Origin: Patescibacteria group bacterium
GTDB lineage: Bacteria > Patescibacteriota > Minisyncoccia > Phycocordibacterales > Phycocordibacteraceae
Length of the DNA: 64,000 nt
Direction: 5' to 3'
NCBI GenBank assembly: GCA_040388985.1
Contig: JAZKAU010000001.1
Coordinates: 59,359-123,358 of the forward strand
The notes beneath the pieces were generated by a model. That model saw nothing but the letters and a program-made list of their open reading frames with translations, was not told the DNA's origin and did no database searches. Positions 1,999 through 53,964 of this stretch are shown here, one piece after another (within the stretch, counting starts at the first letter, position 1; each line of letters begins with the position of its first letter). A program made the position numbers and the translations under genes.

Positions 1999-2757
1999 AT
2001 GGAAAGCGGGGGAATACATGTAGTCCTGAAAGCTGAGCAGATCGGCACGCTTTTTGGCCTTACCCTCACCAATAGTCTCCTTATGACCTGGGTGGTCATG
2101 CTCATTCTCATTGTTTTCGCCTTCCTCTTCCGCCGCAAATTGGCGCTCATTCCAGGCAAATTCCAGGCCGGCGTTGAATGGCTTTTCGAGGGAGTCTTGG
2201 GTTATATGACCGAAACGCTTGAGGACGAGAAGATAGCGAAGCGGTTCTTTCCGCTGGTCATGACCATCTTTCTCTTCGTGCTTCTGGGCAATGAGCTAGC
2301 CTTCATTCCGGGAGTAGGTTCCGTGGGCTTCCATGCGGCAGAAGGATTCGTTCCGCTCCTGCGCGCACCGGGTGCAGACCTTAACTTCACGCTCGCGCTC
2401 GCCTTCATATCATTCTTCACGATTGAAATAACTGGCATCGCCGTGCTTGGCTGGTGGAAATATGCCGGAAAATATATTAATCTTAGATCACCGATCGACT
2501 TCATCGTGGGTATCATCGAGCTGCTCTCGAACATCGGACGTCTCATCTCGTTCTCGTTCCGTCTGTTCGGCAACATCTTCGCGGGCGAAGTGATGATAGC
2601 CGTGGCAGTATTTTTCGCCGCATACCTTCTGCCTGTGCCACTGATGGCCTTCGAGGTCTTCGTTGGATTCATTCAGGCAGTGGTCTTCGCGATGTTGACC
2701 CTGTTCTTCATCAAGATAGCGATCGCGGAACCGCATGGGGGCGAAGAGGCGCACTAG
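1999..2757 (+). CDS. atpB: F0F1 ATP synthase subunit a
   Basis: Hydrophobic 252 aa ending ...RLFGNIFAGE (a-subunit Arg motif), followed by atpE/F/H/A/G/D/C. Confidence 0.8.
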   Translation: MESGGIHVVLKAEQIGTLFGLTLTNSLLMTWVVMLILIVFAFLFRRKLALIPGKFQAGVEWLFEGVLGYMTETLEDEKIAKRFFPLVMTIFLFVLLGNELAFIPGVGSVGFHAAEGFVPLLRAPGADLNFTLALAFISFFTIEITGIAVLGWWKYAGKYINLRSPIDFIVGIIELLSNIGRLISFSFRLFGNIFAGEVMIAVAVFFAAYLLPVPLMAFEVFVGFIQAVVFAMLTLFFIKIAIAEPHGGEEAH

Positions 2758-2785
2758 CGCTTTTCCTCCATGCGGCTCCGGGATG

Positions 2786-2894
2786 CCCAGTATGACAGCT
2801 TGGACCGACGTGAATTAACCACTACACTGGGAGTTCACGAGCCAAAGCAGTTTCAATGATGAATCGATCATTCCGTTGAGGCTGTCATACTGGG
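2786..2894. repeat. IR-bounded hairpin element in the 300-nt atpB-atpE intergenic region
   Basis: 14-bp perfect terminal inverted repeat cccagtatgacagc (2786-2799) / gctgtcatactggg (2881-2894) enclosing the nested hairpins gtgaa..ttcac and aatgat..atcatt. Confidence 0.5.
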
Positions 2895-3027
2895 GATGGA
2901 GCATAATTACAAAGTGTTATTAACTAAGCGCTTCATAAAATTCGGCAGATACAAGGCGCAATTGAGGAGCGAAGCGAGTCGTACAGAGACGTACGGTGAG
3001 CAAGCCCCGGAGATTGCAACGCAGTAG

Positions 3028-3288
<261 letters not shown>

Positions 3289-3306
3289 CCGCCGTATAGG
3301 CCCTGT

Positions 3307-3390
3307 CTGCTTTGTTATGGGTCCCGATGATTTTCTCCACCGTACGCCCTAGTACGCCTACGAAAATCATCTTCCCATGCCTCGCATCCA
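3307..3390 (+). repeat. Structured intergenic element, copy 1 of 3 (atpE-atpF spacer)
   Basis: ctgctttgttatgggtccc + stem gatgattttc/gaaaatcatc around a loop containing caccgtacgcc + tcccatgcctcgcat; same architecture at 36743 and 53965. Confidence 0.55.
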
Positions 3391-3429
3391 GGACCTCTCC
3401 GACGCTTAGGTACAGACCTACTTCACCTT

Positions 3430-3879
3430 ATGGCACAACTTCTCGACGCATTCGGCATTCAGCTGCCGCTTCTCATCGCCCAGGCAGTGAACTTCGGCGT
3501 TCTCTTCGTCGTGCTCTCATACCTGCTGTATAAGCCGGTGCTGAAGACTCTTGAGAACCGTCGCCAGATCGTCGCCAAGGGCGTCGAGGACGCGCAAGCC
3601 GCCGAAACGGCGCTCGCAGAAGCTGGAGAGAAGGCATCTGCGGTCGTAGAGACGGCTGAGACGGAGGCGGAGGGCATCGTCGGGCGCGCACGCGCTGAGG
3701 CAGGCACGGAGAAGGCGAAGCTCGTAAAGGACGCGGAAGCGCGTGCGGCAGCTATAGCTGCTGACGCGGAAGCTCGTGCGGCTGAGACGAGCGCAAAAGC
3801 GCTTCGTGAGAGCGAGAAGGAGATAGCACGCCTTGCCATACTCGCCGCAGAGAAGGCAATGCGCGCTAAGGCGTCATAG
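3430..3879 (+). CDS. atpF: F0F1 ATP synthase subunit b
   Basis: N-terminal TM helix then a long Ala/Glu-rich helix; operon context. Confidence 0.75.
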   Translation: MAQLLDAFGIQLPLLIAQAVNFGVLFVVLSYLLYKPVLKTLENRRQIVAKGVEDAQAAETALAEAGEKASAVVETAETEAEGIVGRARAEAGTEKAKLVKDAEARAAAIAADAEARAAETSAKALRESEKEIARLAILAAEKAMRAKAS

Positions 3880-22075: not shown

Positions 22076-22363
22076 ATGAAAAAGCGACCGAAGCAGTATC
22101 GACAAGAAATCTACAACTTTATAGAGGATCGTCTCGGGCGCCTTCTTACTATCGACGAGCATGACGAGTTGCGCGATCTTATCTTCGACTACGTCTTCAG
22201 TACTCGTAATCTGCGCGCGGTACTCTCACGCACATTCTGCCGCCACGAGTGGGAGGTGGATAAGAAGGTTGAGGGGGGCGAGAGATTCCTTCTGTACGTG
22301 AAATGTGCGAAATGCGATACGCGCACATCTAAGAAGATGCCAACTCGCTCGGTGCGGCTCTGA
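22076..22363 (+). CDS. Hypothetical small protein with CxxH...CxxC motif
   Basis: 95-aa ORF; FCRHEW...CAKCDTR. Confidence 0.3.
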   Translation: MKKRPKQYRQEIYNFIEDRLGRLLTIDEHDELRDLIFDYVFSTRNLRAVLSRTFCRHEWEVDKKVEGGERFLLYVKCAKCDTRTSKKMPTRSVRL

Positions 22364-22497
22364 GAGCTGAAATCTTGAAGCCGTCAAAAAACCCGATATG
22401 CAAGGCGGAGCAGAACGAGAGCTCGAGTCGTACTAGGGCGTACGGTGAGAGCTCAAGTGATAGCGACAACGCAGCAGATCGGGGAATTTTGGCAGCT

Positions 22498-23409
22498 TCA
22501 ATCGAAGAGAGTGCCTAAATAGCCGTCGATCTCTCGCTGGTCCAGTTCATAGAAATACTCGTCATCGTCGTGGAGCTTCTGGGCGAGCGCCGTTCCTACG
22601 AAGCGCCAATGCCAGGGCTCATATTGGTAATACGCGTTCTTCGGTGGGTAGGAAAGTATGAAGCCGTATTTCCAGGCATTATCCGTAAGCCAGGCGTATT
22701 CGCCGGTCTTGTCGAATCCGGCGAATGTCGTGCCGACCTTCGTGGTCGTGAAATCCAGTGCCGTGCCGAGCTGATGCTCCGAATATCCTTGATCGGCCGA
22801 GAAAGAGTTCGCGGTACCGGCACCATACGTCACGCGATAGCTTGATTTGAGACCAGCCTGAGTGTCGAAGGAGCGGTATGCGGATATAACTAAGATGTCC
22901 TGGCCGTCATCATGAGCATCTTTAAGTAATTGCTCAAGCCGTGGCTCAACCTGACCTTGCACTTTCAGTACGCGAGTCTTTTCATAATTATATTCGGAAG
23001 GTATGGGGGCAAGTACTAGCGGGACGTAGTTCTCGTTCAGGAAATATACCTTCGAATATTTCTTGAGGAGTTCAGCATCGGTATCTATGCGCTTCTGGAG
23101 GGCTGCCGCGGTCGAGGAAGAGGTCCTCGCTTCTATCGCTATCGCGTCAGCCCGCTCCTGTTCGTGGGTAAGCTGCCCCTCAAGCGATATCCTGGAGGCC
23201 GTCTCATCCGCGAGCTTCGCCTGCAAGTCGGTCGTCTCGGCAAGGTATGCCCGGGTGCTCGAAGCGAGCTCTGTTGAAAGAGCAGCGCGCTCGCGGGCAA
23301 GCGTATAGGTGCGCCAGCCAAGATAGCCGGCAGCGACGACTACGCAGAAAGAAAGTCCCGCAAGAGCATACAGAAGCGGACGAGGGAAGGTAGTAAGGAC
23401 GGAAGGCAT
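22498..23409 (-). CDS. M15B (VanY-like) D-alanyl-D-alanine carboxypeptidase with N-terminal TM helix and coiled coil
   Basis: ISAYRSFDTQ...YSEHQLGTALDF (SxHxxGxAxD zinc-binding motif). Confidence 0.65.
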   Translation of the reverse strand: MPSVLTTFPRPLLYALAGLSFCVVVAAGYLGWRTYTLARERAALSTELASSTRAYLAETTDLQAKLADETASRISLEGQLTHEQERADAIAIEARTSSSTAAALQKRIDTDAELLKKYSKVYFLNENYVPLVLAPIPSEYNYEKTRVLKVQGQVEPRLEQLLKDAHDDGQDILVISAYRSFDTQAGLKSSYRVTYGAGTANSFSADQGYSEHQLGTALDFTTTKVGTTFAGFDKTGEYAWLTDNAWKYGFILSYPPKNAYYQYEPWHWRFVGTALAQKLHDDDEYFYELDQREIDGYLGTLFD

Positions 23410-24059: not shown

Positions 24060-24109
24060 TGAACAGCAGATATTAGCCTATAGCTAAAGGTGGCAGGGTA
24101 AACGTATAG

Positions 24110-24143
24110 CAAAAAGGCGTCCGCTATGCGGACGCCTTTTTGC
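24110..24143. terminator. Bidirectional intrinsic terminator between convergent genes
   Basis: caaaaaggcgtccgc-tatg-cggacgcctttttg. Confidence 0.65.
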
Positions 24144-24163
24144 TAAGACCTATATCCTGTTAC

Positions 24164-27938: not shown

Positions 27939-27972
27939 TGATATTCATAATACCATAAAGTTGGATGTAATG

Positions 27973-28001
27973 CAAAAGCGCCCGCTCTGCGGGCGCTTTT
28001 G
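27973..28001. terminator. Intrinsic terminator (near-copy of the 27296 hairpin)
   Basis: caaaagcgcccgc-tct-gcgggcgcttttg. Confidence 0.65.
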
Positions 28002-28693: not shown

Positions 28694-30313
28694 ATGGATA
28701 CTCGCTTCCAAACTCCTTCGACACTCATCTCTCTAGCTGGACTCGCGGTGAGCGCGACCGCCCTGCTCGCACCTATCAGTACGCTAGCCGCAGCTCCCTC
28801 CTGCACGCTTACAGCGACTCCTACGAGCACGGCTGTAGGCAGCCAGGTCAGTCTCAGCTGGACATCGACGGGCGCGAGCTACGCTTCGTGGATCCAGAAC
28901 AAGGCTGCAGCTATTCTCGGTCTTTCAGGTGACGGAGAAGGTTCGAAAGGATCAGAGACGTACATCCTCGGGAACACGACCGGTACGATCGCGCCGTCCC
29001 TCCAGGTCTCCCAGACAGGTCTAGACCTCGCTAGGATCTCTACAGTGAACCTGCCCTCATTCACTAACGCCATCGGCCTCGTCGTCCTAGGGAAGTACGC
29101 ATACGTTGTCGATGCTGGAGCCGGACACCAGTTGGACATACTCGATATATCGAAGCCTGCCGCGCCGGTGATCGTCGGCACGCTGAGCGATCTCACGAAT
29201 CTGAACGGCGCATTCTACCTCAAGATCGTAGGCAATTATGCCTACATCACGGCCACCGGAAGTAATCGGCTTACGATTGTCGACATTAGCAAGCCGACGG
29301 CGCCTAAGGTAGTGGGTTCCGTGAATGATGCCCGGTTGAACAGTCCGCGCGGACTGTTCATTTCCGGCAAGTATGCCTATGTAGTAGGGAATACGAACGC
29401 ATCTTTCAGCGTTATTGATATCTCGAATCCAGCATTGCCAAAAATTGTGAGCTTTATAACAGACGCAGTGAAACTTTCGGGAGGAGACGCGGTGGACGTA
29501 GACGGGCGCTACGCGTATGTCGCAGCAGGCGGAAGCAACTCGCTTACCGTGATCGATATACTCAATCCTGCGGCACCAGTGATCGTCGGAAGCATCACGG
29601 ATACTGCGCGCATGAGTAATCCTAAGGAATTGGTGGTGGAGGATGGCTATGCCTACGTCACCGCTCTCGGCAGCAATGATCTGATCATCGTTAACATCGC
29701 GAATCCGAAAGCGCCGGTCATAGTCAGCACCGTATCGGATGCGGTACAGCTCGGTGGCCCGAAGAATCTGGCGATTCGCGACGGCGTGGCCTACGTTACT
29801 GCCAACAGCGGCCGGAGTCTCACTATCGTGAATATAAGCGACCCGAAAGCGCCTGCTATCGTAACCACGCTCAGGGATACGACGAATCTGTCTGACCCGC
29901 GCGGCGTAGCGATCTCGGGAGGGAATATCTATGTAGCATCCGGAAGCAAGTTCAACGCATTCGCTACATCCGAGACGCTCGCTACGGCTCAGTGCTCGAC
30001 CACCATCACGGTATCGGGAGGCAGCCCTGCGCCTTCGGCTTCTGTCGACTCGGCGAAGACGGCTGCTGCAGGGAACGCGACTTCGGCTTCCATAGGCGGC
30101 TCGGCGAGCGGCGTGAGCGCGCTTACCGTGATCGTATATCCTTCTGATGACTATGATACGATCGTCTATCGCAATAACGCGGTTCCGGTGACTAGCGGAC
30201 ATTGGTCCCTCACGCTCCCCTTGAAGAAGGGAAGCTACATGATAGAAGTGCATGTCGCATCCACTACTCCTTCAGGAGGCACCTATCTCACGAGCAGCAC
30301 CACCTCTCTTTAG
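28694..30313 (+). CDS. Secreted LVIVD-repeat beta-propeller protein (paralog 1)
   Basis: Signal peptide; repeated YAYV..(A/G)..L.I.DIS.P..P..V units; 539 aa. Confidence 0.65.
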   Translation: MDTRFQTPSTLISLAGLAVSATALLAPISTLAAAPSCTLTATPTSTAVGSQVSLSWTSTGASYASWIQNKAAAILGLSGDGEGSKGSETYILGNTTGTIAPSLQVSQTGLDLARISTVNLPSFTNAIGLVVLGKYAYVVDAGAGHQLDILDISKPAAPVIVGTLSDLTNLNGAFYLKIVGNYAYITATGSNRLTIVDISKPTAPKVVGSVNDARLNSPRGLFISGKYAYVVGNTNASFSVIDISNPALPKIVSFITDAVKLSGGDAVDVDGRYAYVAAGGSNSLTVIDILNPAAPVIVGSITDTARMSNPKELVVEDGYAYVTALGSNDLIIVNIANPKAPVIVSTVSDAVQLGGPKNLAIRDGVAYVTANSGRSLTIVNISDPKAPAIVTTLRDTTNLSDPRGVAISGGNIYVASGSKFNAFATSETLATAQCSTTITVSGGSPAPSASVDSAKTAAAGNATSASIGGSASGVSALTVIVYPSDDYDTIVYRNNAVPVTSGHWSLTLPLKKGSYMIEVHVASTTPSGGTYLTSSTTSL

Positions 30314-33740: not shown

Positions 33741-33780
33741 GCCAAGTATTTTTTCATGCTCCAAACAATCGGAAGCGATG

Positions 33781-33810
33781 AAAAGACCGGCGCCAGGCGC
33801 CGGTCTTTTC
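33781..33810 (+). terminator. Perfect terminator hairpin between the riboswitch candidate and the nrdA start (possible expression platform)
   Basis: aaaagaccggcgcc-a-ggcgccggtcttttc followed by att. Confidence 0.7.
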
Positions 33811-33834
33811 ATTATCACTTCATCACCCTGCCTC

Positions 33835-36723
33835 ATGCCCATGCTCGAAATAAAGAAGCGGAACGGAACCGTCGTTCCCTTCGACGCAGAAAAGATATCT
33901 GCAGCCATCGCGAAGGCCTTCATCGCCTCCAGTGAGACCGTTTCGGAAGAGGGGCTTGGCGAGATGACCGCGGACATCGTCGGCACGCTTGAGGCCAGAT
34001 TCCCTGAATATCCGCCATCCGTCGAGCATGTACAGGACGCGGTGGAGTTGGCGCTCATGCGCGGCGGCTACCTCGACGTAGCCAAGCAGTACATCGTCTA
34101 CCGCTACGAGCGTTCGAAGGTCCGCGAGGAGAAGAAGCAGGAGACGCTCGAGAAGATCGAGGAGGAAGGCCTGATGCTCACCAACGCATCGGGAGGACAG
34201 GAACGTTTCAATGAGGCGAAGGTTCGCGAGTCGCTTGCGCGCGTGTCCGAGGGCATGCCGGACGTAAGCGAACTCGACATGGACGCCATACTCGCGCAGC
34301 TCCGGTTCGAGCTGTATGAGGGCATGACGACTGCCGAGGTGCGCAAGGCGCTCGTTGCCGTCGTACGCTCGATGATCGAGCGCGACCCCGCATACTCGCG
34401 CCTCGCGGCGCGCCTCCTGCTCGACGGCCTCTACGCCGAGGTCTTCGGTCCCGAATATGACGCGAAGAATCCTCTCGACTCGCATGAGCGGGTCTTCGTG
34501 CGCAATATGAAGCAGCTCGTTGAAGCCGGCGACCTCGACGAGAGGATGGGCGAGTTCGACCTCGCGAAGCTCGCGCGTGCGATGAAGGTAGAGAACGATA
34601 CGCTTTTCGAATACATGGGCCTTGAGATCATGAGCAGCCGTTACTGCATGGAGGATCCGAAGACGAAGGCTCAGCTCGAGACTCCGCAGATGCTCTGGAT
34701 GCGCATCGCTATGGGCCTTGCCATCGCTGAGAAGCCGGAAGACCGCGAGAAAGCTGCTCTTGAGTTCTATGACGTGCTCTCGAATTTCTACTACACGCCC
34801 GGCGGCCGCACCCTCTTCCAGGCCGGCGTGAAGAAGGCCCAGCTTTCTAACTGCTTCCTCAACGTCGTTCCTGACTCGCTCGACGGCATCTTCAAGTCCT
34901 TCAGCGATAATGCTCAGTATCTGAAGTGGTCGGGCGGCACGGGAACCAGCTGGAGCCGCGTGCGCGCTACCGGATCCTTCATCAAGGGCACGGGCGTCGG
35001 TTCCCAGGGCCCTATACCGTTCCTCAAGATTGCCAACGACGTGAACATCGCCATCAACCGCTCCGGCAAGCGACGTGGCGCAGGCTGCGTATACCTTGAG
35101 AGCTGGCACCTCGATATCGAGGACTTCCTCGAGCTGCGTAAGAATACGGGCGACGAACGGCGACGTACGCATGACATAAATACCGCTAACTGGATCCCAG
35201 ACCTGTTCATGAAGCGCGTGCGCGATGGTGGCGAGTGGACTCTCTTCTCTCCGAACGACGTGCCAGAGCTTACCGAGATATATGGCGCGGCCTTCGAGAA
35301 GAAATATCAGGAGTACGAGGCTGCAGCCGATCGGGGCGAGATAGAGATCTATAAGCGCATTCCGGCCGCTGATCTCTGGAAGAAGATGATCGGCATGCTG
35401 TTCGAGACCGGGCACCCGTGGATTACCTGGAAGGACCCGTCCAACATCCGCTCACCGCAGGATCATGCCGGCGTCGTGCATAACAGCAACCTCTGCACCG
35501 AGATAACGCTCAATACGAGCGACGACGAGACGGCTGTCTGTACGCTCGGCTCTCTAAACTTCGCGAAGTTCGTCACCCGTGACGAGAACGGGAAGCCTAC
35601 CTTCGACTGTGATTTGGTCGCTAAGGTCACGCGCGTGGCAGTGCGCATGCTCGATAACGTCATCGATCTCAATTACTACCCGACCGTCGACTCGTACAAC
35701 GGCAATTCCCGCCATCGCCCTATCGGGCTCGGCGTACGCGGCTACCACGACGCGCTCTATATGCTCGGACTCCAGTTCGACAGTCCTGAGGCGGTCGCCT
35801 TCGCCGACGAGAGCATGGAAGTCATGGCCTACTACACCATCCTCGCCTCAAGCGAGCTCGCGAAGGAGCGAGGTACCTATTCGACCTATAAGGGCTCGAA
35901 GTGGGACCGCGATATCTTCCCGCAGGACACCATCGACCTGCTTGAGGCTGAGCGCGGCGAGGAGATCAAGGTGAAGCGTGGCGGGAAGCTCGACTGGACG
36001 CCGGTCCGCGCTCATGTGAAGCAATACGGCATGCGCAACTCGAACACCATGGCTATCGCGCCTACCGCGTCTACGGCGAACCTGGTGGGTTGCATCCCGT
36101 GCGTCGAGCCTATCTACAAGAACATCTACGTGAAGAGCAACAAGGAAGGGGAGTTCGTCGTCGTGAACAAGTATCTTGTCGAAGACCTCAAGAAGGAAGG
36201 CCTCTGGAGCGCCGCGATGCTCAACCGCATCAAGTATGCTGACGGCAGCATCCAGGACATCATGGAGATTCCCGCGCATCTGCGCGAGAAGTACAAGGAG
36301 GTCTTCGAGATCGACGGCAAGTGGCTGGTGGAAGCTGCGGCACGGCGCGGGAAGTGGATAGACCAATCCCAGTCCCTTAACATCTTCTACAATGGCACCA
36401 GCGGCCGCGACCTCTCTGAAATATACTTCAAGGCGTGGGAAATGGGCCTCAAGACTACGTACTATCTGCGTACTCTTGGCGCTTCCCAAGTAGAGAAAGC
36501 TACCGTCTCAAGCAGCGAATACGGCTCGACTCACACCCGCACCAGCGGCGCTCCGCTCGCGCAGGCAGTGGCAGTGGCAGAAGCAGTCGTAGCGCGCGCA
36601 GAGATGCCGCAGCGGCCCGTTTTGAGCGTTCCAAGCGGCTTCTCGCCGGAGGAGTGGAAGGCAAAGCTGGCACGAGTCGCCGCGGGTGAAGAGTCGGGCA
36701 TCTGCGAATCCTGTGAGTCTTAG
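33835..36723 (+). CDS. nrdA: Ribonucleotide reductase class I alpha subunit
   Basis: ATP-cone N-terminus, catalytic NLCTEI...CTLGSLN, C-terminal Cys pair; start moved downstream of the terminator hairpin that the track ORF runs through. Confidence 0.9.
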   Translation: MPMLEIKKRNGTVVPFDAEKISAAIAKAFIASSETVSEEGLGEMTADIVGTLEARFPEYPPSVEHVQDAVELALMRGGYLDVAKQYIVYRYERSKVREEKKQETLEKIEEEGLMLTNASGGQERFNEAKVRESLARVSEGMPDVSELDMDAILAQLRFELYEGMTTAEVRKALVAVVRSMIERDPAYSRLAARLLLDGLYAEVFGPEYDAKNPLDSHERVFVRNMKQLVEAGDLDERMGEFDLAKLARAMKVENDTLFEYMGLEIMSSRYCMEDPKTKAQLETPQMLWMRIAMGLAIAEKPEDREKAALEFYDVLSNFYYTPGGRTLFQAGVKKAQLSNCFLNVVPDSLDGIFKSFSDNAQYLKWSGGTGTSWSRVRATGSFIKGTGVGSQGPIPFLKIANDVNIAINRSGKRRGAGCVYLESWHLDIEDFLELRKNTGDERRRTHDINTANWIPDLFMKRVRDGGEWTLFSPNDVPELTEIYGAAFEKKYQEYEAAADRGEIEIYKRIPAADLWKKMIGMLFETGHPWITWKDPSNIRSPQDHAGVVHNSNLCTEITLNTSDDETAVCTLGSLNFAKFVTRDENGKPTFDCDLVAKVTRVAVRMLDNVIDLNYYPTVDSYNGNSRHRPIGLGVRGYHDALYMLGLQFDSPEAVAFADESMEVMAYYTILASSELAKERGTYSTYKGSKWDRDIFPQDTIDLLEAERGEEIKVKRGGKLDWTPVRAHVKQYGMRNSNTMAIAPTASTANLVGCIPCVEPIYKNIYVKSNKEGEFVVVNKYLVEDLKKEGLWSAAMLNRIKYADGSIQDIMEIPAHLREKYKEVFEIDGKWLVEAAARRGKWIDQSQSLNIFYNGTSGRDLSEIYFKAWEMGLKTTYYLRTLGASQVEKATVSSSEYGSTHTRTSGAPLAQAVAVAEAVVARAEMPQRPVLSVPSGFSPEEWKAKLARVAAGEESGICESCES

Positions 36724-36742
36724 AACGGGTTAAAATCCCTTT

Positions 36743-36822
36743 CTGCGTCGTTATGGGTCCCACCGGATTCTCTCACCGTAGGTCCACTACGACTCGAGAA
36801 TCCTCCTCCCATGCCTCGCATA
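36743..36822 (+). repeat. Structured intergenic element, copy 2 of 3 (nrdA-nrdB spacer)
   Basis: ctgcgtcgttatgggtccc + stem ggattctc/gagaatcc around loop tcaccgtaggtcc... + tcccatgcctcgcat. Confidence 0.55.
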
Positions 36823-36911
36823 AAGGAATTTTCCCTCCGTTCTAGCTGAAACAATCAGAGTGCTTCTGACTTACGAAGAAAAGTCGAATTATAGAAATAA
36901 CCAATCCATAT

Positions 36912-39379: not shown

Positions 39380-40096
39380 ATGAAAACAGTCGGGATAGTA
39401 GGATACGGGCAATTCGGCCGCTTCATGGCGGCCCACCTTTCTAAGTATGCTCAGGTGCGGGCATTCGACGTGGCGGGAAAGGAAGGCGTTCTCCTCGTTT
39501 CACTGACTGACGTAGCTAGCAGCGACCTCCTTATCTTTGCCGTACCTGTCCAGAATCTTGAAGAAGCCTGCGAGCAGGTAGTGCCGCATGTAAGCCCCGG
39601 AGCTCTGATCGTCGATGTCTCGTCGGTGAAGATGCGTCCGCTCGCCATCCTAAAGGCTTATTTCCCAGATCATGAGATACTCGGCACGCATCCGATCTTC
39701 GGCCCGCAATCAGGCAAGGACGGGATAGAAGGACTTCCGCTTGTCGTTGCGAACGTGTCATGGACTTCCGAGCATTATAATCAGATACTGCGCTTCCTTT
39801 CAGGTACGCTCGGCTTGCATGTGATCGAGCGAACTCCGGAAGAACACGACAGGGAGATGGCGCGAGTTCAGGGCCTTACGCACTTCATTGGCAAGGCGCT
39901 GGTGCGCCTGGATATACAGGAATACGAGACGGGTACGATGAGTTACAACCAGCTCATAAAGCTTCGAGAACTCCTGAAGGATGACTCCTGGGAACTCTTC
40001 AAGACGATAGAGAACGAGAATCCGTACGCTCAGGAAGTCAGAGAGGGATTCCTGACCACGCTTGCCATCCTTGAGAAAGAGCTGAAAGATATGTAG
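39380..40096 (+). CDS. Prephenate/arogenate dehydrogenase family protein
   Basis: N-terminal Rossmann VGIVGYGQFGRFMAAHL; 238 aa. Confidence 0.5.
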   Translation: MKTVGIVGYGQFGRFMAAHLSKYAQVRAFDVAGKEGVLLVSLTDVASSDLLIFAVPVQNLEEACEQVVPHVSPGALIVDVSSVKMRPLAILKAYFPDHEILGTHPIFGPQSGKDGIEGLPLVVANVSWTSEHYNQILRFLSGTLGLHVIERTPEEHDREMARVQGLTHFIGKALVRLDIQEYETGTMSYNQLIKLRELLKDDSWELFKTIENENPYAQEVREGFLTTLAILEKELKDM

Positions 40097-40138
40097 CAAG
40101 GGGGTTTACGCGGAAACGATCCGGCATATTATATATTT

Positions 40139-40849
40139 ATGTTCCATATAAGACCGAATTCCGAAGATGCCTTCCATGTCATTCTGGGCGAGTTGCTCGG
40201 GCTTTGGCTTATCGCCAACGCCGGATACTATCTCATTTTCTATACGTTCAACTTCGGTCTGAGCTACAATACGGCACCGATAACCATCGCGCTTTACTTC
40301 TTGCTGTGGGCCGGAGTGAGTATCTTCTCCTTCTGGGACATCCTTCGGGAGTGGCTTAACGTCGAGCGGCGTATCTGGGTCTATGGCCTATGGAGCCTCG
40401 GATTCGCCGCGCTTATGTGGGTGCTTCTCTATCTCTTCGCGCATTTGCCCGCCGTATCAGGTCTGCAAGTCGCACCCTTCACTGATATCCTGTTCGCGAC
40501 TCCCTGGTATTTCCTGCCCAAATCTACCGAGGTCTTGGTCCAGCAGATACTCATGACTATCCTCGTGCTTGAGCTCAACTATCGATACCGTTCGCTCTAC
40601 AAGGTGATTCTGGGCTACATCGTATGCTTCGGCGGATCGCATCTGCTCCTTTTTCTCTTCTTCAATCCTGCTGCCACCGTATACGCGGCCGCGATGACCA
40701 TCGGCTCGCTATTCTCTGCGCTAGTCTTCCCGTATCTCATCCTTCGCGTGCGGGGAGGATTCATCTATACCTACGCCATCCATCTTCTCTTCTACATCTT
40801 CCTTGCGATGGCGCTCCACGCCTGGCCGCCGCCGGGGTATATCGCTTAG
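40139..40849 (+). CDS. Polytopic membrane protein (possibly CPBP-like)
   Basis: 236 aa, 6-7 TM helices; weak E..Q / FGGSH / H...L motifs. Confidence 0.35.
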   Translation: MFHIRPNSEDAFHVILGELLGLWLIANAGYYLIFYTFNFGLSYNTAPITIALYFLLWAGVSIFSFWDILREWLNVERRIWVYGLWSLGFAALMWVLLYLFAHLPAVSGLQVAPFTDILFATPWYFLPKSTEVLVQQILMTILVLELNYRYRSLYKVILGYIVCFGGSHLLLFLFFNPAATVYAAAMTIGSLFSALVFPYLILRVRGGFIYTYAIHLLFYIFLAMALHAWPPPGYIA

Positions 40850-41484
40850 GGTTCTACATTTCTCACAGACAGATTCTAGGAATCTGCAAAACAAGCTGTT
40901 ATTGCGTCACCCTCTGTAGCAGATTTCCTCGGCCTTCCAAAGTTTGATATGGCGGATGTTGATGTAAAAGTATAGTAATCTCCGTGCCCATTAATACTAG
41001 GATAATAATTGATGCGTTTTAGGTAGTCTGACCTTTTCGAAAAGTACCATCATCATACGAGCGCGGCAGCAGCACCAGGCCGAATACCACCCGCTCGCAC
41101 GGCTTGGGCCAGGCAGACTTTCCACTGAACAGCGCGTAGAGGAAGGTGAGGATGCAGGCGACGGCGCCCGTAGCTAACTGGAGCGTCGACACCCACTCGC
41201 CGGTCATCTCCCGATACTACAGAGCGTTGAGCGTTGAACATACGCCCAGATGCTTTAGTTCATCGTACTGGGCGTTACTGCCCGAGCTTGCTCTGAACGT
41301 TATAGATCACATAGGGACGACGCTCCACTCTAGAGGCCTTTTTCCAGAAAAATCTGAAAAGAATTTGAGATTTATCTTACCTTCGTTTTGAAAAGATACT
41401 CGTGCGCAGAGATAGTTCTTTCGGACTATACGCTGACGCGTCCGGCACGGTATCCCTTATACGCTTATCTCAGATCCATATTCT

Positions 41485-43104
41485 ATGAACCTGATCTCTG
41501 CTTCCGTGCGGCGTGGCCTCGTTCACGCGCTCTCGATCGGCACAATTACGACCGCTCTTATATTTCTTGTATCACCAGCCCTTGCGCTCGCGAGCCCACC
41601 TACCTGCACCCTAACCGCAACGCCTTCGACGGTAGACGTAGGGGACCACGTTACCCTGAACTGGGCTTCGACGGGCGCTACGTACGGCACGTGGCTGCAG
41701 GATGCTGCCGCAGCCGTACTCGGACTCTCCGGAGATGCTCTTCTTGCAAGCGGTTCGGAGGATTTTCTTGTCGGAAGCACTACTGGCACGATCACCCCGA
41801 CGCTACAGGTCGCACAGACCGCTAAGACCTTGACCCAGGTGGCCTCGACATCGCTTCCTGCGTTCACGAACGCGATCGGTCTAGAGATCGTCGGAAATTA
41901 TGCCTATGTGGTGGACGCGGGTGCGAGCCATCAATTAGATGTCATCAGCATCGCTAATCCGACTGCGCCTGCGGTAGTCGGAACGACCAGCAGCCTGACG
42001 AACCTGAACGGTGCCTTCTACATCAAGATTTCCGGAAACTACGCCTTTGTCACCGCGACTGGAAGCGATCGCCTCACCGTAGTGGATATATCGAACCCGA
42101 CTGCGCCTGCGGTCGTCGCGTCGCTAAGCGATTCAAGGTTCTCCGCACCGCGCGGCCTGTTCTTGGTCGGAAACTATGCCTATGTAGTCGGGAATAGCCA
42201 AGGGAGTCTCAGCATCGTGGATATCTCGAACCCGCTGGCTCCGGTGATCAAGGGTTCGCTCACTGACTCGACCATACTCAGCGGGGGAGATTCTCTCTTT
42301 GTCGACGGCCGGTATGCCTACGTCACGGCAGGGCAGAGCAGTACGCTTGCCGTTATCGACATAGCTAGCTCGACGGCTCCCGCCATCGTAGGAACGCTGG
42401 TTGACCCGATACGGATGAATAATCCGAAAGAGCTCCTGGTCTCGGGTAACTACGCGTATGTAACGGCCTTAGCAAGCAATGCGCTCGTAATAGTCGATAT
42501 CTCGAGCTCGACCGCGCCTACGATAGTCAGTGCGCTATCAGATACCACCCGGCTCGCAGGGCCGAAGAATCTGACGATATTCGATGGCATTGCATACATC
42601 GCTGCCAATAGCGGTAGGAGTCTGGTAATGGCGGATATTACCGATCCGCATGCCCCATTCATCATTGACTCGAAGAGAGACACGACAAACCTGAGCGATC
42701 CTCGCGGAGTAGCTATAAGTGGCGGCTATATATTCATAGCGTCTGGGAATATATTCGACGTGTTCACGACGGTCGAAACGTCGCTTGCCAGCGATTGCTC
42801 CGCCACTATTACGGTAAGCGGCGGGACGCAGCAGCCTACCGCTACGGTCGACAGCGTCCTGAACAGCGCTGGAAACGCTACGATAAGCGGCACGGCTACC
42901 GGCCCGACCTCGCTCACCGTCATCATCTATCCATCCTTCGATAGTGATACGGTCGTCTATCGCGATGATCAGGTACCGGTGAGCGGCGGCCACTGGTCAG
43001 TGACCGCGCCTCTTCAATCCGGGAGCTATACCGTTGAAGTCCACAGCTCAAGCCAAAGCCCTTCAGCAGGAACGTATCTGACCAGCAGTACGTTCTCGGT
43101 GTAG
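41485..43104 (+). CDS. Secreted LVIVD-repeat beta-propeller protein (paralog 2)
   Basis: Same 539-aa length and repeat architecture as 28694..30313, collinear identity throughout. Confidence 0.65.
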   Translation: MNLISASVRRGLVHALSIGTITTALIFLVSPALALASPPTCTLTATPSTVDVGDHVTLNWASTGATYGTWLQDAAAAVLGLSGDALLASGSEDFLVGSTTGTITPTLQVAQTAKTLTQVASTSLPAFTNAIGLEIVGNYAYVVDAGASHQLDVISIANPTAPAVVGTTSSLTNLNGAFYIKISGNYAFVTATGSDRLTVVDISNPTAPAVVASLSDSRFSAPRGLFLVGNYAYVVGNSQGSLSIVDISNPLAPVIKGSLTDSTILSGGDSLFVDGRYAYVTAGQSSTLAVIDIASSTAPAIVGTLVDPIRMNNPKELLVSGNYAYVTALASNALVIVDISSSTAPTIVSALSDTTRLAGPKNLTIFDGIAYIAANSGRSLVMADITDPHAPFIIDSKRDTTNLSDPRGVAISGGYIFIASGNIFDVFTTVETSLASDCSATITVSGGTQQPTATVDSVLNSAGNATISGTATGPTSLTVIIYPSFDSDTVVYRDDQVPVSGGHWSVTAPLQSGSYTVEVHSSSQSPSAGTYLTSSTFSV

Positions 43105-43148
43105 TCTGGTCAGACAATCAAAGGGTCAATCGGACTGGCAGCGGAGGA

Positions 43149-43186
43149 TTCAGCCTAAGACAAAGAGGCTCGCAAAAGCCTCTTTG
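43149..43186 (+). terminator. Intrinsic terminator after LVIVD paralog 2
   Basis: gacaaagaggct-cgcaaa-agcctctttgtc-tttgcttgtt. Confidence 0.65.
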
Positions 43187-43504
43187 TCTTTGCTTGTTCG
43201 CACTGGCTAATGACTTTAGAACGATAGACTGGGTAAAGGAATACCCGATTCCGGAGATAACCCTGAAGCAGATCTCTACCTGCGGGCAGGATCCTTCCAC
43301 ACCGGGCAGGCAGCTTGCTGTGCAACTACACTTGGATCTTAATAGTAGCTTCGCTCCTTTAAAATCTCGGCGTACACCTTGCGGCTTCTCCTCGAAGACT
43401 CAGAAAATGCTCACAAGGTCTTCGAATCCTGCACGTAAGCGCCCCACGCTTACTCTGGGAAACCAATAAGAAAGCGCCCAAGAGGCGCTTTCTTATTGGT
43501 TTCC

Positions 43505-43530
43505 CTGGCTGTGTGGGACAACGTTGGAAC
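43505..43530 (+). repeat. 26-bp perfect direct repeat, copy 1 (ctggctgtgtgggacaacgttggaac)
   Basis: Identical to 44105-44130, exactly 600 bp apart; both copies lie just after terminator hairpins. Confidence 0.8.
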
Positions 43531-43593
43531 TTTCTTAAGGAAATATGCACTAGCAATGGACTAAGTTAAGTGTTTGTATTATAATGCGCTCAG

Positions 43594-43986
43594 TTGTTCC
43601 CACCGTTGGAGGAATGGAAAATGAGACCTACCCCTTGGGCCCTTGCAGCCTTCCGAGTATCCCACCAGCACCCTGAGTCTGATCATCGAGATAGGCTATT
43701 GAAAGATGGGGTGCCCGTGCATCTCATCGATCAGCTCTGCGCAACTCATGCGACCTGCCGGCTCCGACTCCTTCAGATGGAGCTGAAGATCAACTATTCG
43801 GCTATCCCCCATTTCAATAAGTGGATTAGCTGCAAGAAAACCTTTGGCCGTGGCGATGATGAAACCGCTGAATGGTTTGGATTCGTCCGTCGCATTGAAC
43901 AGCTCGAAACGGAGCTTGGCGCAAAGAAACCTCGTGCAGCTCGTCTGCGAGCAAAGCTCAACAAGGTGAGCATGCGACGCGGATAA
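43594..43986 (+). CDS. Hypothetical protein flanked by the 26-bp direct repeats
   Basis: 130-aa ORF with its own terminator (44003-44046). Confidence 0.35.
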   Translation: MFPPLEEWKMRPTPWALAAFRVSHQHPESDHRDRLLKDGVPVHLIDQLCATHATCRLRLLQMELKINYSAIPHFNKWISCKKTFGRGDDETAEWFGFVRRIEQLETELGAKKPRAARLRAKLNKVSMRRG

Positions 43987-44104
43987 TAACCGTCTGAAGA
44001 ATCCGCCTGGAGAAATCCACCGCTTCTCCAGGCGGCTTCTTTTTATGCAAATAGTTCCAAAGTACTATTCTGCTTCTCCGTATGGGCTAGATTCTAAAAC
44101 ATTG

Positions 44105-44130
44105 CTGGCTGTGTGGGACAACGTTGGAAC
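44105..44130 (+). repeat. 26-bp perfect direct repeat, copy 2
   Basis: Identical to 43505-43530. Confidence 0.8.
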
Positions 44131-44134
44131 CAAT

Positions 44135-44530
44135 TTAACTCTCCACCACTACCTTTAGTTTCTGCAATATAGTTTCTATGTTGGTTTCGGAAAATCGCTC
44201 GCTCACGGCACCTTCCTTGACCCATACCCGATAGTCTAACTCACACTTATCCGGTTCAAATGGTTTGAAAATATATACAACGTGATGGTTGTCATCCTTC
44301 TTAGTCATTTCAAACATAAATCCATCTTCAAATGCAGTTATTTCAAATTCGCACCAACCACCACTTTGGTCCTGGCTTCTATATATAGTTCCAAGTTTTA
44401 CTGGATTTTCACTCGCCTCTTCTTTCACCACACCATCTACCCATCTTGGAGTGTTATCGGGATTGGTAGTGAAGTTAAAAACTTCGAAGGCAGGCTTATT
44501 TATAATAATGGTCTTCTTCACACTATTCAT
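44135..44530 (-). CDS. SRPBCC (START/Bet v1-like) family protein
   Basis: 131 aa, ...KPAFEVFNFTTNPDNTPRWVDGV... typical polyketide-cyclase/AHSA1-like pattern. Confidence 0.45.
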   Translation of the reverse strand: MNSVKKTIIINKPAFEVFNFTTNPDNTPRWVDGVVKEEASENPVKLGTIYRSQDQSGGWCEFEITAFEDGFMFEMTKKDDNHHVVYIFKPFEPDKCELDYRVWVKEGAVSERFSETNIETILQKLKVVVES

Positions 44531-44600
44531 GTTCCAAAGTATACCAACTAATGGCTGGGTGAGTTTAGAACTCTTAATTGGAATGAGATTGAGCTAGAAT

Positions 44601-44909
44601 TTATTTCTTTGACTGTCCCCACTGCCATCGAGGTTTTTCTCCTCTCTTGTAGCAGATAAAAACAAGTAGGGCGGTCAGTGCAATGATGGGTAATGCGAAT
44701 GTCAGGAAATTGCCTCCCGAATCAGGATTTCCTGGAATATCTTTTTCTCTCGAGATTACGGAGGTCATGATGAGTGCAACATACGCGAGAAGAACGCACC
44801 ATCCTTGCCATTTTACTGGAATCCAACCCCAGCCATAAAGTTTGGCCTTAAACCAATAGCCTTGTGGATTGTCTCTGAGATATGCAATGTACATTGTCAG
44901 AAAACTCAT
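44601..44909 (-). CDS. Small membrane protein
   Basis: 102 aa, two TM helices, Trp-rich. Confidence 0.35.
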   Translation of the reverse strand: MSFLTMYIAYLRDNPQGYWFKAKLYGWGWIPVKWQGWCVLLAYVALIMTSVISREKDIPGNPDSGGNFLTFALPIIALTALLVFICYKRGEKPRWQWGQSKK

Positions 44910-45149
44910 ACAAATCAGTATAGCTTAAATTGGTTAACTCCGAGGGTACGCGAAGCTTGCTCTCGTTCGTCTCCACAGAAAAGAAAATGCCCCTCAGAAG
45001 GGGCGCTTTCTTATCGTTCCAGTTCCCCGAACATCACGTTAATAACATACCGCTCACATTTAATAGGGAATACATGAGTGGGGTGGCTCAACAGCTGTGT
45101 TAGATTAGGCTTATGGAAAGGTTTTCTGAAGTATAATGAGCAAACCCAC

Positions 45150-45755
45150 ATGAACTCTGTCTCAACATTCATCTTTGATTGTTTCGGTGTGATCTGTCAC
45201 CCTGCCGTACACGGCTGGTATGAAGAAAATAGATTAAGGCAAGGATATTCTGATGAACATTTACCGGCAATTTTAGAACAGTTTGACCTCGGAAAGCTAT
45301 CTGAAGATGAACTTGTTGATTACTTCCTGACATACGAGGGAATTAATTCCACAAAAGAAAAGATTCGTGAGGAGATAGATAGCCACTTGGGTTTAGATAC
45401 TGAATTAGCTTCGACTATTAAGAAGCTAAAAGAAAGTGGTTTCAAGACAGCTCTACTATCAAATGGTAACGAGTCTTTCTTTGAGAGAAAGGTCTATCAA
45501 GAATATCCTCAATTCAAGGATCTATTTGATGAAATTGTCATTTCTTCTTCAGTCGGAATGGTAAAGCCTAACGCTGATATCTATCTGCACACTCTCCAAA
45601 TAGTAGGGTCAAGACCTGAAGAATCATTATTTATTGATGACCGTAAGGTAAATGTAGACGCCGCAACTATGCTCGGTATGAATGGCTATGTATATACGAC
45701 AAGTTCTGCTTTCTCTGACTATTTGAAAGATGTGGGTGTTAGTCTTGGGCGGTAG
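45150..45755 (+). CDS. HAD-superfamily hydrolase
   Basis: Motif I FIFDCFGVI (DxxG), motif IV FIDDRKVNVDAA; start set at MNSVSTF. Confidence 0.6.
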   Translation: MNSVSTFIFDCFGVICHPAVHGWYEENRLRQGYSDEHLPAILEQFDLGKLSEDELVDYFLTYEGINSTKEKIREEIDSHLGLDTELASTIKKLKESGFKTALLSNGNESFFERKVYQEYPQFKDLFDEIVISSSVGMVKPNADIYLHTLQIVGSRPEESLFIDDRKVNVDAATMLGMNGYVYTTSSAFSDYLKDVGVSLGR

Positions 45756-45909
45756 GCCCAGAAGTTATATTCGCCTCAGTCTCTGATGCAAAGCAGCCCT
45801 ATGTTATAAGGCTGTTTTGGTTTGCTCCCCCTCGTGGACAAGTTCAGAACTGCGAATTGGGTTGGTATTAAGAGCGAACTTCAGTTCAGTGGCATTCTCA
45901 GCTTCTTTC

Positions 45910-46473
45910 CTACTGCCATAAGCTCTCAGTAAATTCGGGTAGCTTTTCAGCCAAAACATCCATTTCCCGTATGCCTTGGCGCATAATGGTTGGGGTAATT
46001 TTGAGCTTACGGAACTTAATCATCCCGTCCTCCTTCTTTGTCTTTGTATCTACTCTTACATAGCCCTCTGTATCTAGAGTTTGCCATTTAGCGTGGGCTA
46101 TCTTGTTTCTCAGAGTACTAAGCGTTTCAAGCTGTTTTCTGATTGATGCTAGTTGGCTGCTCTTTAAGACCTTCTTCTTTTGAGCCCAATTAACCATCGG
46201 GAAGGCAAGGTTATAGAAAAGCTCTATTTTTGCCGATACTTCCAAATCCTTAATGATGGTATAGCCCTCGTAATGGGAACGGTCATTGATAAGGTTAGCT
46301 ATTTCTACGTCCAAGCTATGCTCCAAATTGCTAAAGCTAATCAGGAAAGAACCTATGTGGATTGCGTACTTTTCCTCTTGCGCTTCCGTTAGTTCATCGC
46401 CAGCACCGTCATATTGGTCTAGCTCCTCATACTTAACTTCAAGAGCTTTTGGTTGCTTGGCTTTAGCTTTCAT
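45910..46473 (-). CDS. HEPN-like protein (RNxxxH motif), last gene of the five-gene operon
   Basis: ...ETLSTLRNKIAHAKW... Rx4-6H HEPN signature; overlaps the upstream Zn-ribbon ORF by 11 nt. Confidence 0.45.
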   Translation of the reverse strand: MKAKAKQPKALEVKYEELDQYDGAGDELTEAQEEKYAIHIGSFLISFSNLEHSLDVEIANLINDRSHYEGYTIIKDLEVSAKIELFYNLAFPMVNWAQKKKVLKSSQLASIRKQLETLSTLRNKIAHAKWQTLDTEGYVRVDTKTKKEDGMIKFRKLKITPTIMRQGIREMDVLAEKLPEFTESLWQ

Positions 46474-46765
46474 TGCTTTTTACAACCTTTTTGGATACCG
46501 CATCAACAAACAACCTAAAAGCAGGTCTTTTCTCCTTCTCGTAAACAACCTTAACCCCAAGGGTATGACCCTTTGGACAGGAAAGCTCCTTCTTGGAAAT
46601 TGCTACGCTTGGCTCATTTATTCGGTCTACGTACATTCGGCGCAGGTTGCCAGCCCCGTCCTTCTGGTAAGAGCAAATAACGGAACTGCACTTCCTGCAC
46701 GAAATTCTCAAAAGCCGTGAATAACCTCCGCGTGCCTTCTTGTATTTGTCGTTCTTAAGCTTCAT
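46463..46765 (-). CDS. Small zinc-ribbon protein
   Basis: CRKCSSVIC ... SCPKGH (CxxC...CxxxH), 100 aa, basic. Confidence 0.4.
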   Translation of the reverse strand: MKLKNDKYKKARGGYSRLLRISCRKCSSVICSYQKDGAGNLRRMYVDRINEPSVAISKKELSCPKGHTLGVKVVYEKEKRPAFRLFVDAVSKKVVKSNES

Positions 46766-46773
46766 ATCAAAGA

Positions 46774-47154
46774 TTATCTTACGATTTGAGTATCAAACCA
46801 TTGCTCCTGAAAGTGAATAGCTGACATAATTTCATCATCAGTCATTTTAATTCCCTCAGGCACAACTACAAGCTTATCGTCGTCATTATCTTTACGATGT
46901 GCAATAGCTATACAGACACCTTTGGCACGGTTAAGAGGTTCGGCTACTCCTAAGTAATAGGCATCTAGGTCTTCACCATCAGGAGCTTTTATTCCTTCTA
47001 TAAATCCATAGTTGGCTTTATACACAAAGCCGTGTTTAGGGTGCTTAGAACCAAGAGTGCGGTCCATAACAACCTCAACCTCCTTTCCTAAGTATTCTTT
47101 TGCAAGTTCAAAGGATTTAGAGGTTTCCATATAAAAAGTTTCGTACCTGCTCAA
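46774..47154 (-). CDS. Truncated family-I inorganic pyrophosphatase-like protein
   Basis: DRTLGSKHPKHGFVYKANYGFIEGI (compare DRF..YPxNYGFIPxT), DGEDLDAYYL (compare DGDPLDVLV), DDKLVVVPEG (compare DxKLxAVP); lacks the N-terminal ~50 aa of canonical PPase. Confidence 0.5.
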   Translation of the reverse strand: MSRYETFYMETSKSFELAKEYLGKEVEVVMDRTLGSKHPKHGFVYKANYGFIEGIKAPDGEDLDAYYLGVAEPLNRAKGVCIAIAHRKDNDDDKLVVVPEGIKMTDDEIMSAIHFQEQWFDTQIVR

Positions 47155-47662: not shown

Positions 47663-47664
47663 AA

Positions 47665-48642: not shown

Positions 48643-48653
48643 ATTAGCTTAAA

Positions 48654-49928: not shown

Positions 49929-49984
49929 GCAAACTTAAGTAAGGCAACAAATAACCTGTAGGGACAACCTACGGGTTGTTTCTT

Positions 49985-51619: not shown

Positions 51620-51622
51620 CTT

Positions 51623-53946: not shown

Positions 53947-53964
53947 AACTCCCTAAAAGTTCAT

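Follow-up and report, generated by a model that had tools for sequence, protein, structure and literature searches.

A palindromic repeat on TAA and TAG stop codons across the Patescibacteria, with pairing preserved on the strand complementary to the mRNA

The sequence between atpE and atpF is one copy of a previously undescribed palindromic repeat of 125-140 bases that occurs across the Patescibacteria and sits on TAA and TAG stop codons, mostly those of housekeeping genes. We came upon it in a 64-kb stretch of Patescibacteria DNA (the window), where it is present in several copies. The repeat is not decaying. Rather, its copies are strongly conserved in place, and their base pairing is preserved on the strand that is absent from the mRNA of the abutted gene, where G-U outnumbers A-C by about 5 to 1. 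As to what the repeat is, we lean toward an old, Patescibacteria-wide family of TA-flanked palindromic insertions, of the REPIN/ERIC/Correia/RUP kind, that has been kept as a hairpin. We hold this view with about as much doubt as confidence.

The original prediction had placed a structured element at 3307-3390 of the + strand, between atpE (3058-3288) and atpF (3430-3879), and the motif is indeed there. These 84 nt are the core of an imperfect hairpin of about 127 nt (3284-3410) that includes the atpE stop codon. The 10-bp stem that had been described is exact, but the “loop” that it was said to close encloses a further conserved 5-bp stem. The box CTGCNTNGTTNNGGGTCCC has three exact matches in the window, on the + strand at 3307, 36743, and 53965, against a chance expectation that we estimate at about 1e-4. 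The same architecture had been claimed between nrdA and nrdB and after hpf; the box matches at both places, and the three copies align over about 100 nt. The family in the window does not stop at three members, however, as had been thought: a covariance model adds two divergent copies in the opposite orientation, for a total of five. The copies, the parts of copy 1, and the abutted genes are as follows.

2927-3041, - strand: copy 5, divergent and new, between atpB and atpE (covariance model 52.1 bits, E 1.5e-11)
3058-3288, + strand: atpE, ATP synthase c subunit (Pfam PF00137); its TAA stop is the 5' foot of copy 1
3284-3410, + strand: copy 1, full imperfect hairpin, between atpE and atpF (covariance model match 3293-3409, 104.5 bits)
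3307-3325, + strand: copy 1, conserved box CTGCTTTGTTATGGGTCCC
3326-3335 and 3362-3371, + strand: copy 1, variable 10-bp stem GATGATTTTC / GAAAATCATC
3341-3345 and 3352-3356, + strand: copy 1, apical stem CGTAC / GTACG
3' of the 10-bp stem, + strand: copy 1, TCCCATGCCTCGCAT
3374-3387, + strand: copy 1, 3' conserved block CCCATGCCTCGCAT
3430-3879, + strand: atpF, b subunit (Pfam PF00430); its start is 20 nt past the hairpin foot
22376-22491, - strand (strand of the box): copy 4, divergent and new (covariance model 54.7 bits, E 3e-12)
33778-36723, + strand: nrdA (Pfam PF02867, PF03477, PF00317), abutted by copy 2
36721-36844, + strand: copy 2, upstream of nrdB (covariance model match 36729-36843, 89.7 bits)
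53575-53946, + strand: hpf, S30AE family (Pfam PF02482), abutted by copy 3
53944-54070, + strand: copy 3, from the hpf stop TAA (53944-53946) (covariance model match 53951-54070, 81.1 bits)

Copies 1 and 2 fold at -37.8 kcal/mol (z -6.4) and -38.7 kcal/mol (z -7.1). At the foot of copy 1, the TA of the atpE stop (3286-3287) pairs with the TA at 3407-3408. The apical stem reads CGTAG/CTACG in copy 2 instead of the CGTAC/GTACG of copy 1, which is a compensatory change. Copy 2 runs from the nrdA stop TAG (36721-36723) to GTTCTA (36839-36844), and the 3' arm of copy 3 overlaps the last codons and the stop (54058-54060) of a convergent formyltransferase-like gene. Copy 4 abuts the stop of a gene for a 303-aa VanY-like protein (22498-23409, - strand) and is convergent to an ORF at 22076-22363 (+ strand). 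The H3 stem of copy 5 has covaried to GCAAT/ATTGC, and this copy is among the few that fold better on the sense strand. It runs in the opposite direction to copy 1, and atpE thus lies between two copies in inverted orientation. The atpB-atpE spacer that holds copy 5 is unusually long (300 nt), and a second, unrelated long hairpin (CCCAGTATGACAGC ... GCTGTCATACTGGG) lies just upstream of copy 5, at 2787-2894. Another locus, L068 (assembly GCA_040384165.1), has the same sequence as the window over the atpB-atpF region.

Read on the + strand from the outside inward, the element begins with TA(R), an outer arm that is often GARCATGYCY, an A-run, and a 5-bp variable stem. There follow a 2x2 loop (TC/TC), TGC/GCA, the loop TTCGTT/CCTC, a covarying stem (RYGGG/CCCRY), a bulge (TCCC/TT), and the 10-bp stem, which is hypervariable. 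At the apex are a 5x5 loop, the covarying CGTAC/GTACG, and a variable apical loop. The entire element is an imperfect palindrome with terminal inverted repeats, and its conserved ends are imperfectly inverted (AAAA-CCTCA-TCTGC-TTCGTT-RYGGG-TCCC ... TT-CCCRYG-CCTC-GCA-TCTGARG-TTTT). The outer arms (TA-GARCATGYCY-AAAA), which resemble terminal inverted repeats, are common to many copies and were never found without the core. The element is 115-140 nt long and has no conserved ORF.

The structure is strongly supported by covariation. In an alignment of 98 copies, 93.2% of cells are paired, as compared to 73.0% in column shuffles (0 of 500 shuffles reached the observed value), and both sides have changed in 25 of the 28 pairs. 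If the partner column is slid by 1-3 positions, pairing falls to 25-40%. RNAalifold recovers the same helices from plain MAFFT alignments, which were made without reference to any structure, so the fold is no product of the covariance model itself. The original prediction was to be given up if covariation lost significance as homologs were added; with more homologs, it is highly significant. A few copies contain extra hairpins of 30-60 nt in the apical loop or the 3' arm (L026:2386-2557, L016:3897-4041, and L111:1737-1940). One such hairpin, GGAAGTRCCCTCGGGG, is common to L026 and L111, and a different one, CCCTCTCCCCGAGAGG, is in L016. These may represent a second, nested mini-element.

A scan of representative genomes with the pattern CTGCNTNGTTNNGGGTCCC-N10-14-CCGTA returned 67 loci, so the genome-wide search for the box that had been proposed does reveal further copies beyond the window. 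Almost all of these loci are from metagenome-assembled genomes (MAGs) of Patescibacteria (CPR), labelled Paceibacterota/Parcubacteria, Kaiserbacteria, Wolfebacteria, or Saccharibacteria, and several genomes gave multiple loci. We built a covariance model (R1) from the copies in the pattern scan and applied it to the window and to the fetched loci. It found 15 extra copies in the fetched loci, which brings the total to 98 copies, from dozens of Patescibacteria MAGs, in about 575 kb of related loci. An extra copy turns up about every 30 kb in the flanking DNA and five lie in the 64-kb window, for an overall density of roughly one per 15-30 kb. Neither the copies in the window nor the best-scoring foreign copies match any family in Rfam 15 at the gathering thresholds, and at E<=10 there were only chance-level matches (MIR2933 at 12.7 bits, mir-35 at 15.5 bits, and ROSE_3 at 13.3 bits). 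We also scanned viral contigs twice: the exact pattern had no matches, and a looser pattern had 58, none of which was confirmed by the covariance model. We therefore reject a phage origin. In the literature on repeats, MITEs, REPINs, and structured RNAs of CPR/Patescibacteria, we found no description of the element.

The element is tied to the ends of genes. If ORFs of 100 codons or more are counted, 47 copies have an ORF end only at the foot 5' of the box, 12 at both feet, and 5 only at the 3' foot, and in most copies the stop is 20-28 nt before the box. The 80 abutting stops are TAG in 39 cases, TAA in 36, and TGA in just 5, whereas the stops of long ORFs in the same DNA are 34% TAG, 35% TAA, and 31% TGA. 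By a crude gene caller, 39 copies lie in tandem-sense contexts, 17 are between convergent genes, and about 6 are genuinely tandem-antisense. Between convergent genes, the element hugs the ORF that has the box on its sense strand in about 14 of 18 cases. Where a copy lies within an operon, only 6-25 nt separate it from the next start codon. Upstream lie core housekeeping genes, with the same ones turning up again in different MAGs. They encode ATP synthase subunits c, a, and beta, GreA, L31, L11, S8, SecY, SSB, DnaB, LepA, KhpA, pilus ATPase and platform proteins, NrdA, and RNase J. ATP synthase c accounts for 5 in the Pfam scan, and for more once the atpE loci are counted. In one locus (L050:1127-1323), a tRNA gene (1253-1323) begins 10 nt past a copy, so the hairpin can also precede RNA genes.

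Is the element a built-in part of the atp operon? A metagenome scan with AtpE gave us 80 related atpE loci, and we searched 81 loci for the element. It follows atpE in only 11 of the 81, always in the standard orientation. In about 55 loci, the atpE-atpF spacer is just 3-22 nt, and at that position about 12 loci have hairpins of 50-160 nt that are unrelated to the element. As the element is optional after atpE, insertion fits better than a built-in regulator of the atp operon. Filled and empty sites can be compared in two pairs: the window and L069, whose AtpE protein is identical to the window's and yet is followed by a 19-nt spacer, and L095 and L096, whose flanks are 85% identical. In both pairs, the sequence past the 3' TA of the element matches the sequence past the stop-codon TA of the empty site (for L095 and L096, CACC-TA[...]TA-AGCCC vs. 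CACC-TA-AGGGG). From these two diverged pairs, it seems likely that the element inserts into the TA of a TAA or TAG stop codon and duplicates the TA, which would explain the scarcity of TGA stops. Of the copies that we inspected, only about 60% have a clear 3' TA, and about 40% do not. A search for closer empty sites via exact matches to proteins (Hpf, NrdB, and the ORF at 22076) returned only the same species. In other Patescibacteria lineages, the atpE-atpF spacers of L090 (504-626), L092 (1726-1850), L099, L088, and L140 contain unrelated hairpin elements of 110-130 nt, and those in L090 and L092 are related to each other. The site after atpE seems to be a hotspot for hairpin elements.

The copies appear to have been in place for a long time. 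Identity averages 0.61 for copies from one genome and 0.56 for copies from different genomes, and for only 8 of 63 copies, mostly from one MAG (CAYVUT), is the nearest neighbour in the same genome. Most often, the closest relative of a copy follows the same gene in a different MAG. Between such orthologs, identity is 79-95%, as compared to 43-64% at third codon positions of the adjacent gene (conserved residues of the four-fold type in the gene adjoining the element). Because the elements are more conserved than the third codon positions, the copies must be old, vertically inherited, and under strong purifying selection in place. This conservation suggests a host function. It counts against an insertion family to some extent, as does the divergence within a genome, which is about as great as that between genomes, unlike in active MITE or REPIN populations.

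The most puzzling aspect of the element is its strand polarity. On the + (mRNA) strand, the MAFFT alignment has 69 C-A/A-C oppositions vs. 24 G-U. On the complementary strand, the model alignment has 2,390 Watson-Crick pairs, 150 G-U, and 32 A-C, and between nearest neighbours, changes on that strand from Watson-Crick to G-U are more common than changes to A-C (173 vs. 31). G-U exceeds A-C on the complement in every helix (65 vs. 9 in H1, 16 vs. 6 in H3, 33 vs. 12 in P4, and 34 vs. 2 in H5). In 69 of 69 copies, the complementary strand is the more stable one (mean -61.0 vs. -49.3 kcal/mol), a mean deficit of 11.7 kcal/mol for the sense fold. Also, on the complement, the TC/TC loop becomes tandem GA/AG, and all of the internal loops are purine-rich. 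Five copies that are reversed relative to their genes keep their intrinsic polarity (7 vs. 1). The long hairpins in L090 and L092 have the same polarity (-62 vs. -44.7 kcal/mol, so the antisense fold is better by 17), while the short terminator-like hairpins after atpE have the opposite polarity.

We considered several causes of the polarity and do not believe any of them. Replication does not account for it: GC skew is flat in the window, and in L013 and L065 the orientation flips with the local gene. We reject a mutation bias by argument, because the known deamination biases of transcription and replication predict the opposite sign. Nor is there merely selection to weaken the sense hairpin, given that transversion mismatches are rare in H1, H3, and H5 (25 vs. 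115) and that compensatory double changes are abundant. Since pairing is kept on the complement, the primary constraint is probably on the element's own single-stranded form, which is probably an antisense RNA or a bottom-strand DNA hairpin.

If the element is an old insertion family, then we can sketch its history. The two conserved inverted ends, which enclose the variable 10-bp stem and the CGTAC/GTACG apical stem, form one long hairpin. Copies would have entered at the TA of TAA or TAG stop codons, so that the ORF was still left with a stop, and would since have been retained at the same loci through purifying selection on the hairpin. Host selection would then fix which orientation is permitted beside an ORF. 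Copies 1 to 3 in the window are unavoidably co-transcribed with atpE-atpF, nrdA-nrdB, and hpf. By analogy to other repeats, the element most likely affects the host as a bulky RNA hairpin at the 3' end or between cistrons: it might block 3' exonucleases or be a substrate for a double-strand RNase, and so alter the relative stability of the upstream cistron. For the copy between atpE and atpF, this would most likely mean an intercistronic hairpin that influences the processing or stability of the atpE segment. On this reading, the element is no regulator that responds to a ligand or a signal.

This brings us to the role in the RNA that was originally suggested for the element. The suggestion is supported in that the element is structured, present in multiple copies, located in operons, and in the sense orientation, but our data do not support the sense strand as the one selected to fold. 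A processing or stability determinant is possible by analogy to REP, ERIC, and Correia elements. Yet if the hairpin in the mRNA were the useful form, then G-U should be tolerated on the sense strand, and we see the opposite. We think it unlikely that the element is primarily a cis-acting element of the sense-strand mRNA, whether as a processing site, as a stabiliser of the upstream cistron (giving more atpE product than atpF product), or as an attenuator. It is true that the element is always co-transcribed in tandem contexts, with its foot on the stop codon of the abutted ORF; that its upstream genes are highly expressed; that it is strongly conserved in place; that its orientation follows the abutted ORF even between convergent genes; and that unrelated hairpins occupy the same site after atpE in other lineages. 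But on the sense strand, A-C mismatches exceed G-U by about 5 to 1 in every helix, the fold is the weaker one in all 69 copies, and the loops are pyrimidine-rich, while purine-rich loops and tandem G-A, both typical of structured RNA, are found on the complement. Furthermore, most relatives lack the element at the atpE site, and the T-runs, which average 3.4 nt, are paired with the A-tract. A canonical attenuator would need longer tracts than these, and a terminator scan made no call at the site. It is highly improbable that the copies are ordinary intrinsic (bidirectional) terminators that are alike in appearance only. An A-tract and a T-tract flank the core hairpin, which follows highly expressed genes, and some relatives (L100 and L089) have simple A-stem-T hairpins at the same site. 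On the other hand, an intrinsic terminator needs a GC-rich stem and an unpaired U-tract of about 6-8 nt, while the A- and T-runs of the element average about 3.5 nt, mirror each other, and pair with each other; a terminator scan of 2700-3500 gave nothing except one unrelated chance-level site; the element lies inside the obligatory operons atpE-atpF and nrdA-nrdB; and its internal loops, 100 nt long, conserved, and asymmetric, are common across a phylum. This pattern of conservation already largely refutes the idea.

Alternatively, the complementary strand might be the functional form. Rather doubtful is the broad proposal that the element is no passive repeat and is instead a phylum-wide functional structure that is active on the strand complementary to the mRNA, either as an antisense RNA or hairpin that is recognised by a conserved Patescibacteria protein (for example, to halt antisense transcription where highly expressed genes end) or as a bottom-strand DNA hairpin for an undiscovered structure-specific recombinase, in which case an attC-like system would be acting beside core genes. 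The narrower versions strike us as unlikely. In one of these, the complementary-strand RNA would be an antisense insulator, leaky in the sense direction, whose hairpin stops or marks antisense transcripts before they reach the 3' end of a highly expressed ORF, or else it would belong to a family of small, protein-binding antisense RNAs. The series from CG through UG to UA, the 93% pairing on the complementary strand, the purine-rich loops (GAGGC/AACGAA, AA/GGGA, and GGAGA/GYGRA in alignment A3) with tandem GA/AG, the polarity that stays with the element in the five reversed copies, and the exact coincidence of the hairpin end with the ORF boundary all fit such an RNA. Against it, no promoter is apparent, within operons only 6-25 nt remain before the next start, and the U-tracts are short. 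In the other version, which we also doubt, the element would work as single-stranded DNA, its bottom-strand hairpin serving as a substrate for a structure-specific recombinase or transposase, as at attC sites, with REP and RAYT, or at IS200/IS605 ends. This would account for a structure that is more conserved than its sequence, for the conserved unpaired bases, for strand-specific pairing with tolerance of G-T, for the size of 115-140 nt, for presence and absence at orthologous sites, and for a location directly past ORF stops at which, as in attC, the strand that folds is the complement of the coding strand. However, the flanks are core operon genes in conserved order rather than cassettes, the copies are dispersed rather than in arrays, neither the GTTRRRY/RYYYAAC boxes nor the GTAG foot of REP is conserved, we saw no integrase or Y1 transposase in the fetched loci (for Y1, a weak test), and in L013 and L065 the orientation tracks the local gene instead of one replication direction.

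The comparison to known systems is instructive. The attC sites of integrons are imperfect palindromes of 57-141 nt that lie directly past ORF stops; their structure is more conserved than their sequence, they have conserved unpaired bases, and the functional folded strand is complementary to the coding strand. Our element shares these features. It does not share the cassette arrays, as its flanks are core operon genes, or the R'/R'' consensus boxes. Of the boxes RYYYAAC ... GTTRRRY, only copy 1 has GCCTAAC, by chance, and the ends of other copies read TAGARC...GYTCTA. We reject an attC array, with copies dispersed among core genes and the consensus boxes absent. We know of no integron integrase for such an element, and we saw none in the fetched loci. 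REP/BIME stabilisers of mRNA, such as the one at malE-malF, are hairpins after the more highly expressed upstream cistron and are built from units of 35-40 nt. Our element is likewise a hairpin after the upstream cistron of an operon and might, by analogy, act in the same way, but its unit is longer.

ERIC, Correia, and RUP elements resemble it in being small, multi-copy, dispersed, and ORF-free, with terminal inverted repeats. ERIC copies beside stop codons in yersiniae are said to show an orientation bias (work of De Gregorio et al. in 2005). To our knowledge, covariation and conservation in place are far stronger in our element than in these families. Also, there is no sequence similarity, the conservation of our element is concentrated in asymmetric internal loops, and its pairing is selected on the strand that is not in the mRNA. 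Bacterial MITEs of this kind are 100-200 bp, have TA termini or TA target duplications, and are co-transcribed with the flanking genes into long stem-loop transcripts; ERIC, Correia (NEMIS), and RUP elements affect mRNA via RNase III or RNase E (PMC2229807). REPINs have two conserved inverted ends and a spacer, which form a hairpin with compensatory changes (PMC3116915). Our element is like a REPIN in its inverted conserved ends, its less conserved spacer, its hairpin of about 100 nt, its extragenic location, its multiple copies, and its long vertical persistence (PMC3116915). Unlike REPINs, it has no conserved GTAG foot; its copies within a genome are highly diverged, without a near-identical population around a master sequence; it is tied to stop codons, has TA ends, and has a fixed orientation to the abutted ORF; and it is found in Patescibacteria, for which such elements are unreported in the literature that we searched. 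Another difference is that we found no RAYT, although this is a weak test: tblastn of IS200 TnpA and YafM sequences against 1.26 Mb of genome fragments gave nothing at E<0.1. We also did not see an element-flanked ORF in the fetched loci.

Several other identities can be set aside. By eye, the consensus does not fit any known ribozyme or riboswitch, SRP RNA, or 6S RNA, and the placement of its bulge and its G-A pairs does not suit K-turn, sarcin-ricin, or tetraloop-receptor motifs. Neither strand has a conserved start or frame, as would be expected for a small ORF or a type I toxin. And we see no SD-like sequence in the 3' arm or the spacer that would allow translational coupling via the ribosome-binding site of the next gene. 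Two short GC-rich palindromes elsewhere in the window (24099-24153 and 27970-27996; for example, GCAAAAGCGCCCGCTCTGCGGGCGC) look like simple terminators, and their covariance-model scores are at chance level.

Patescibacteria genomes are tiny and tightly packed, and neither Rfam nor the searchable literature yielded any account of interspersed structured repeats from this phylum. The element stands out by its host phylum, by how deeply it is conserved in place, by an orientation that is tied to the ORF, and by the selection for pairing on the antisense strand, and these features leave room for a real function as an antisense RNA or as bottom-strand DNA. The element may be a long-lived genomic symbiont, that is, a REPIN-like replicator in a phylum that was supposedly too streamlined to have one, or it may belong to an unrecognised layer of control over gene expression or genome maintenance. 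Either way, the covariance model can serve as an annotation marker for Patescibacteria genomes and should help to keep spurious small ORFs out of them. Metatranscriptomes could test the strand paradox, which poses a concrete question.

The window has other features of interest. On the - strand at 52830-53165, a tRNA gene is split by a group I intron (52903-53142; Rfam RF00028, 70.1 bits); if the flanks (...GCGGTAGCTCAGTGGTAGAGCAGGTCGCT / ...ACGACTTGGTCGCAGGTTCGAATCCTGCCCGCGGAGCCA) are joined, then ARAGORN calls a tRNA. Beside this tRNA, and about 1.3 kb from copy 3, is a gene for a small serine recombinase (52093-52677, + strand; Resolvase N-terminal domain, 5.5e-21), which may be part of a mobile element. 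The stretch from about 40000 to 52000 has a GC content of 0.42-0.48, vs. about 0.55 elsewhere, and a negative GC skew, and is possibly a horizontally acquired island. The regions 29139-29878 and 42080-42543 (and also 30086-30207 and 42877-42998) are paralogous, with periodic repeats of 135-138 nt at 60-75% identity; apparently, these are repeat-domain coding sequences in two related genes that are about 12.8 kb apart. Finally, an acidic coding repeat with a period of 21 nt (GAnGAGATTCAGGAAGA...) lies at 5-123.
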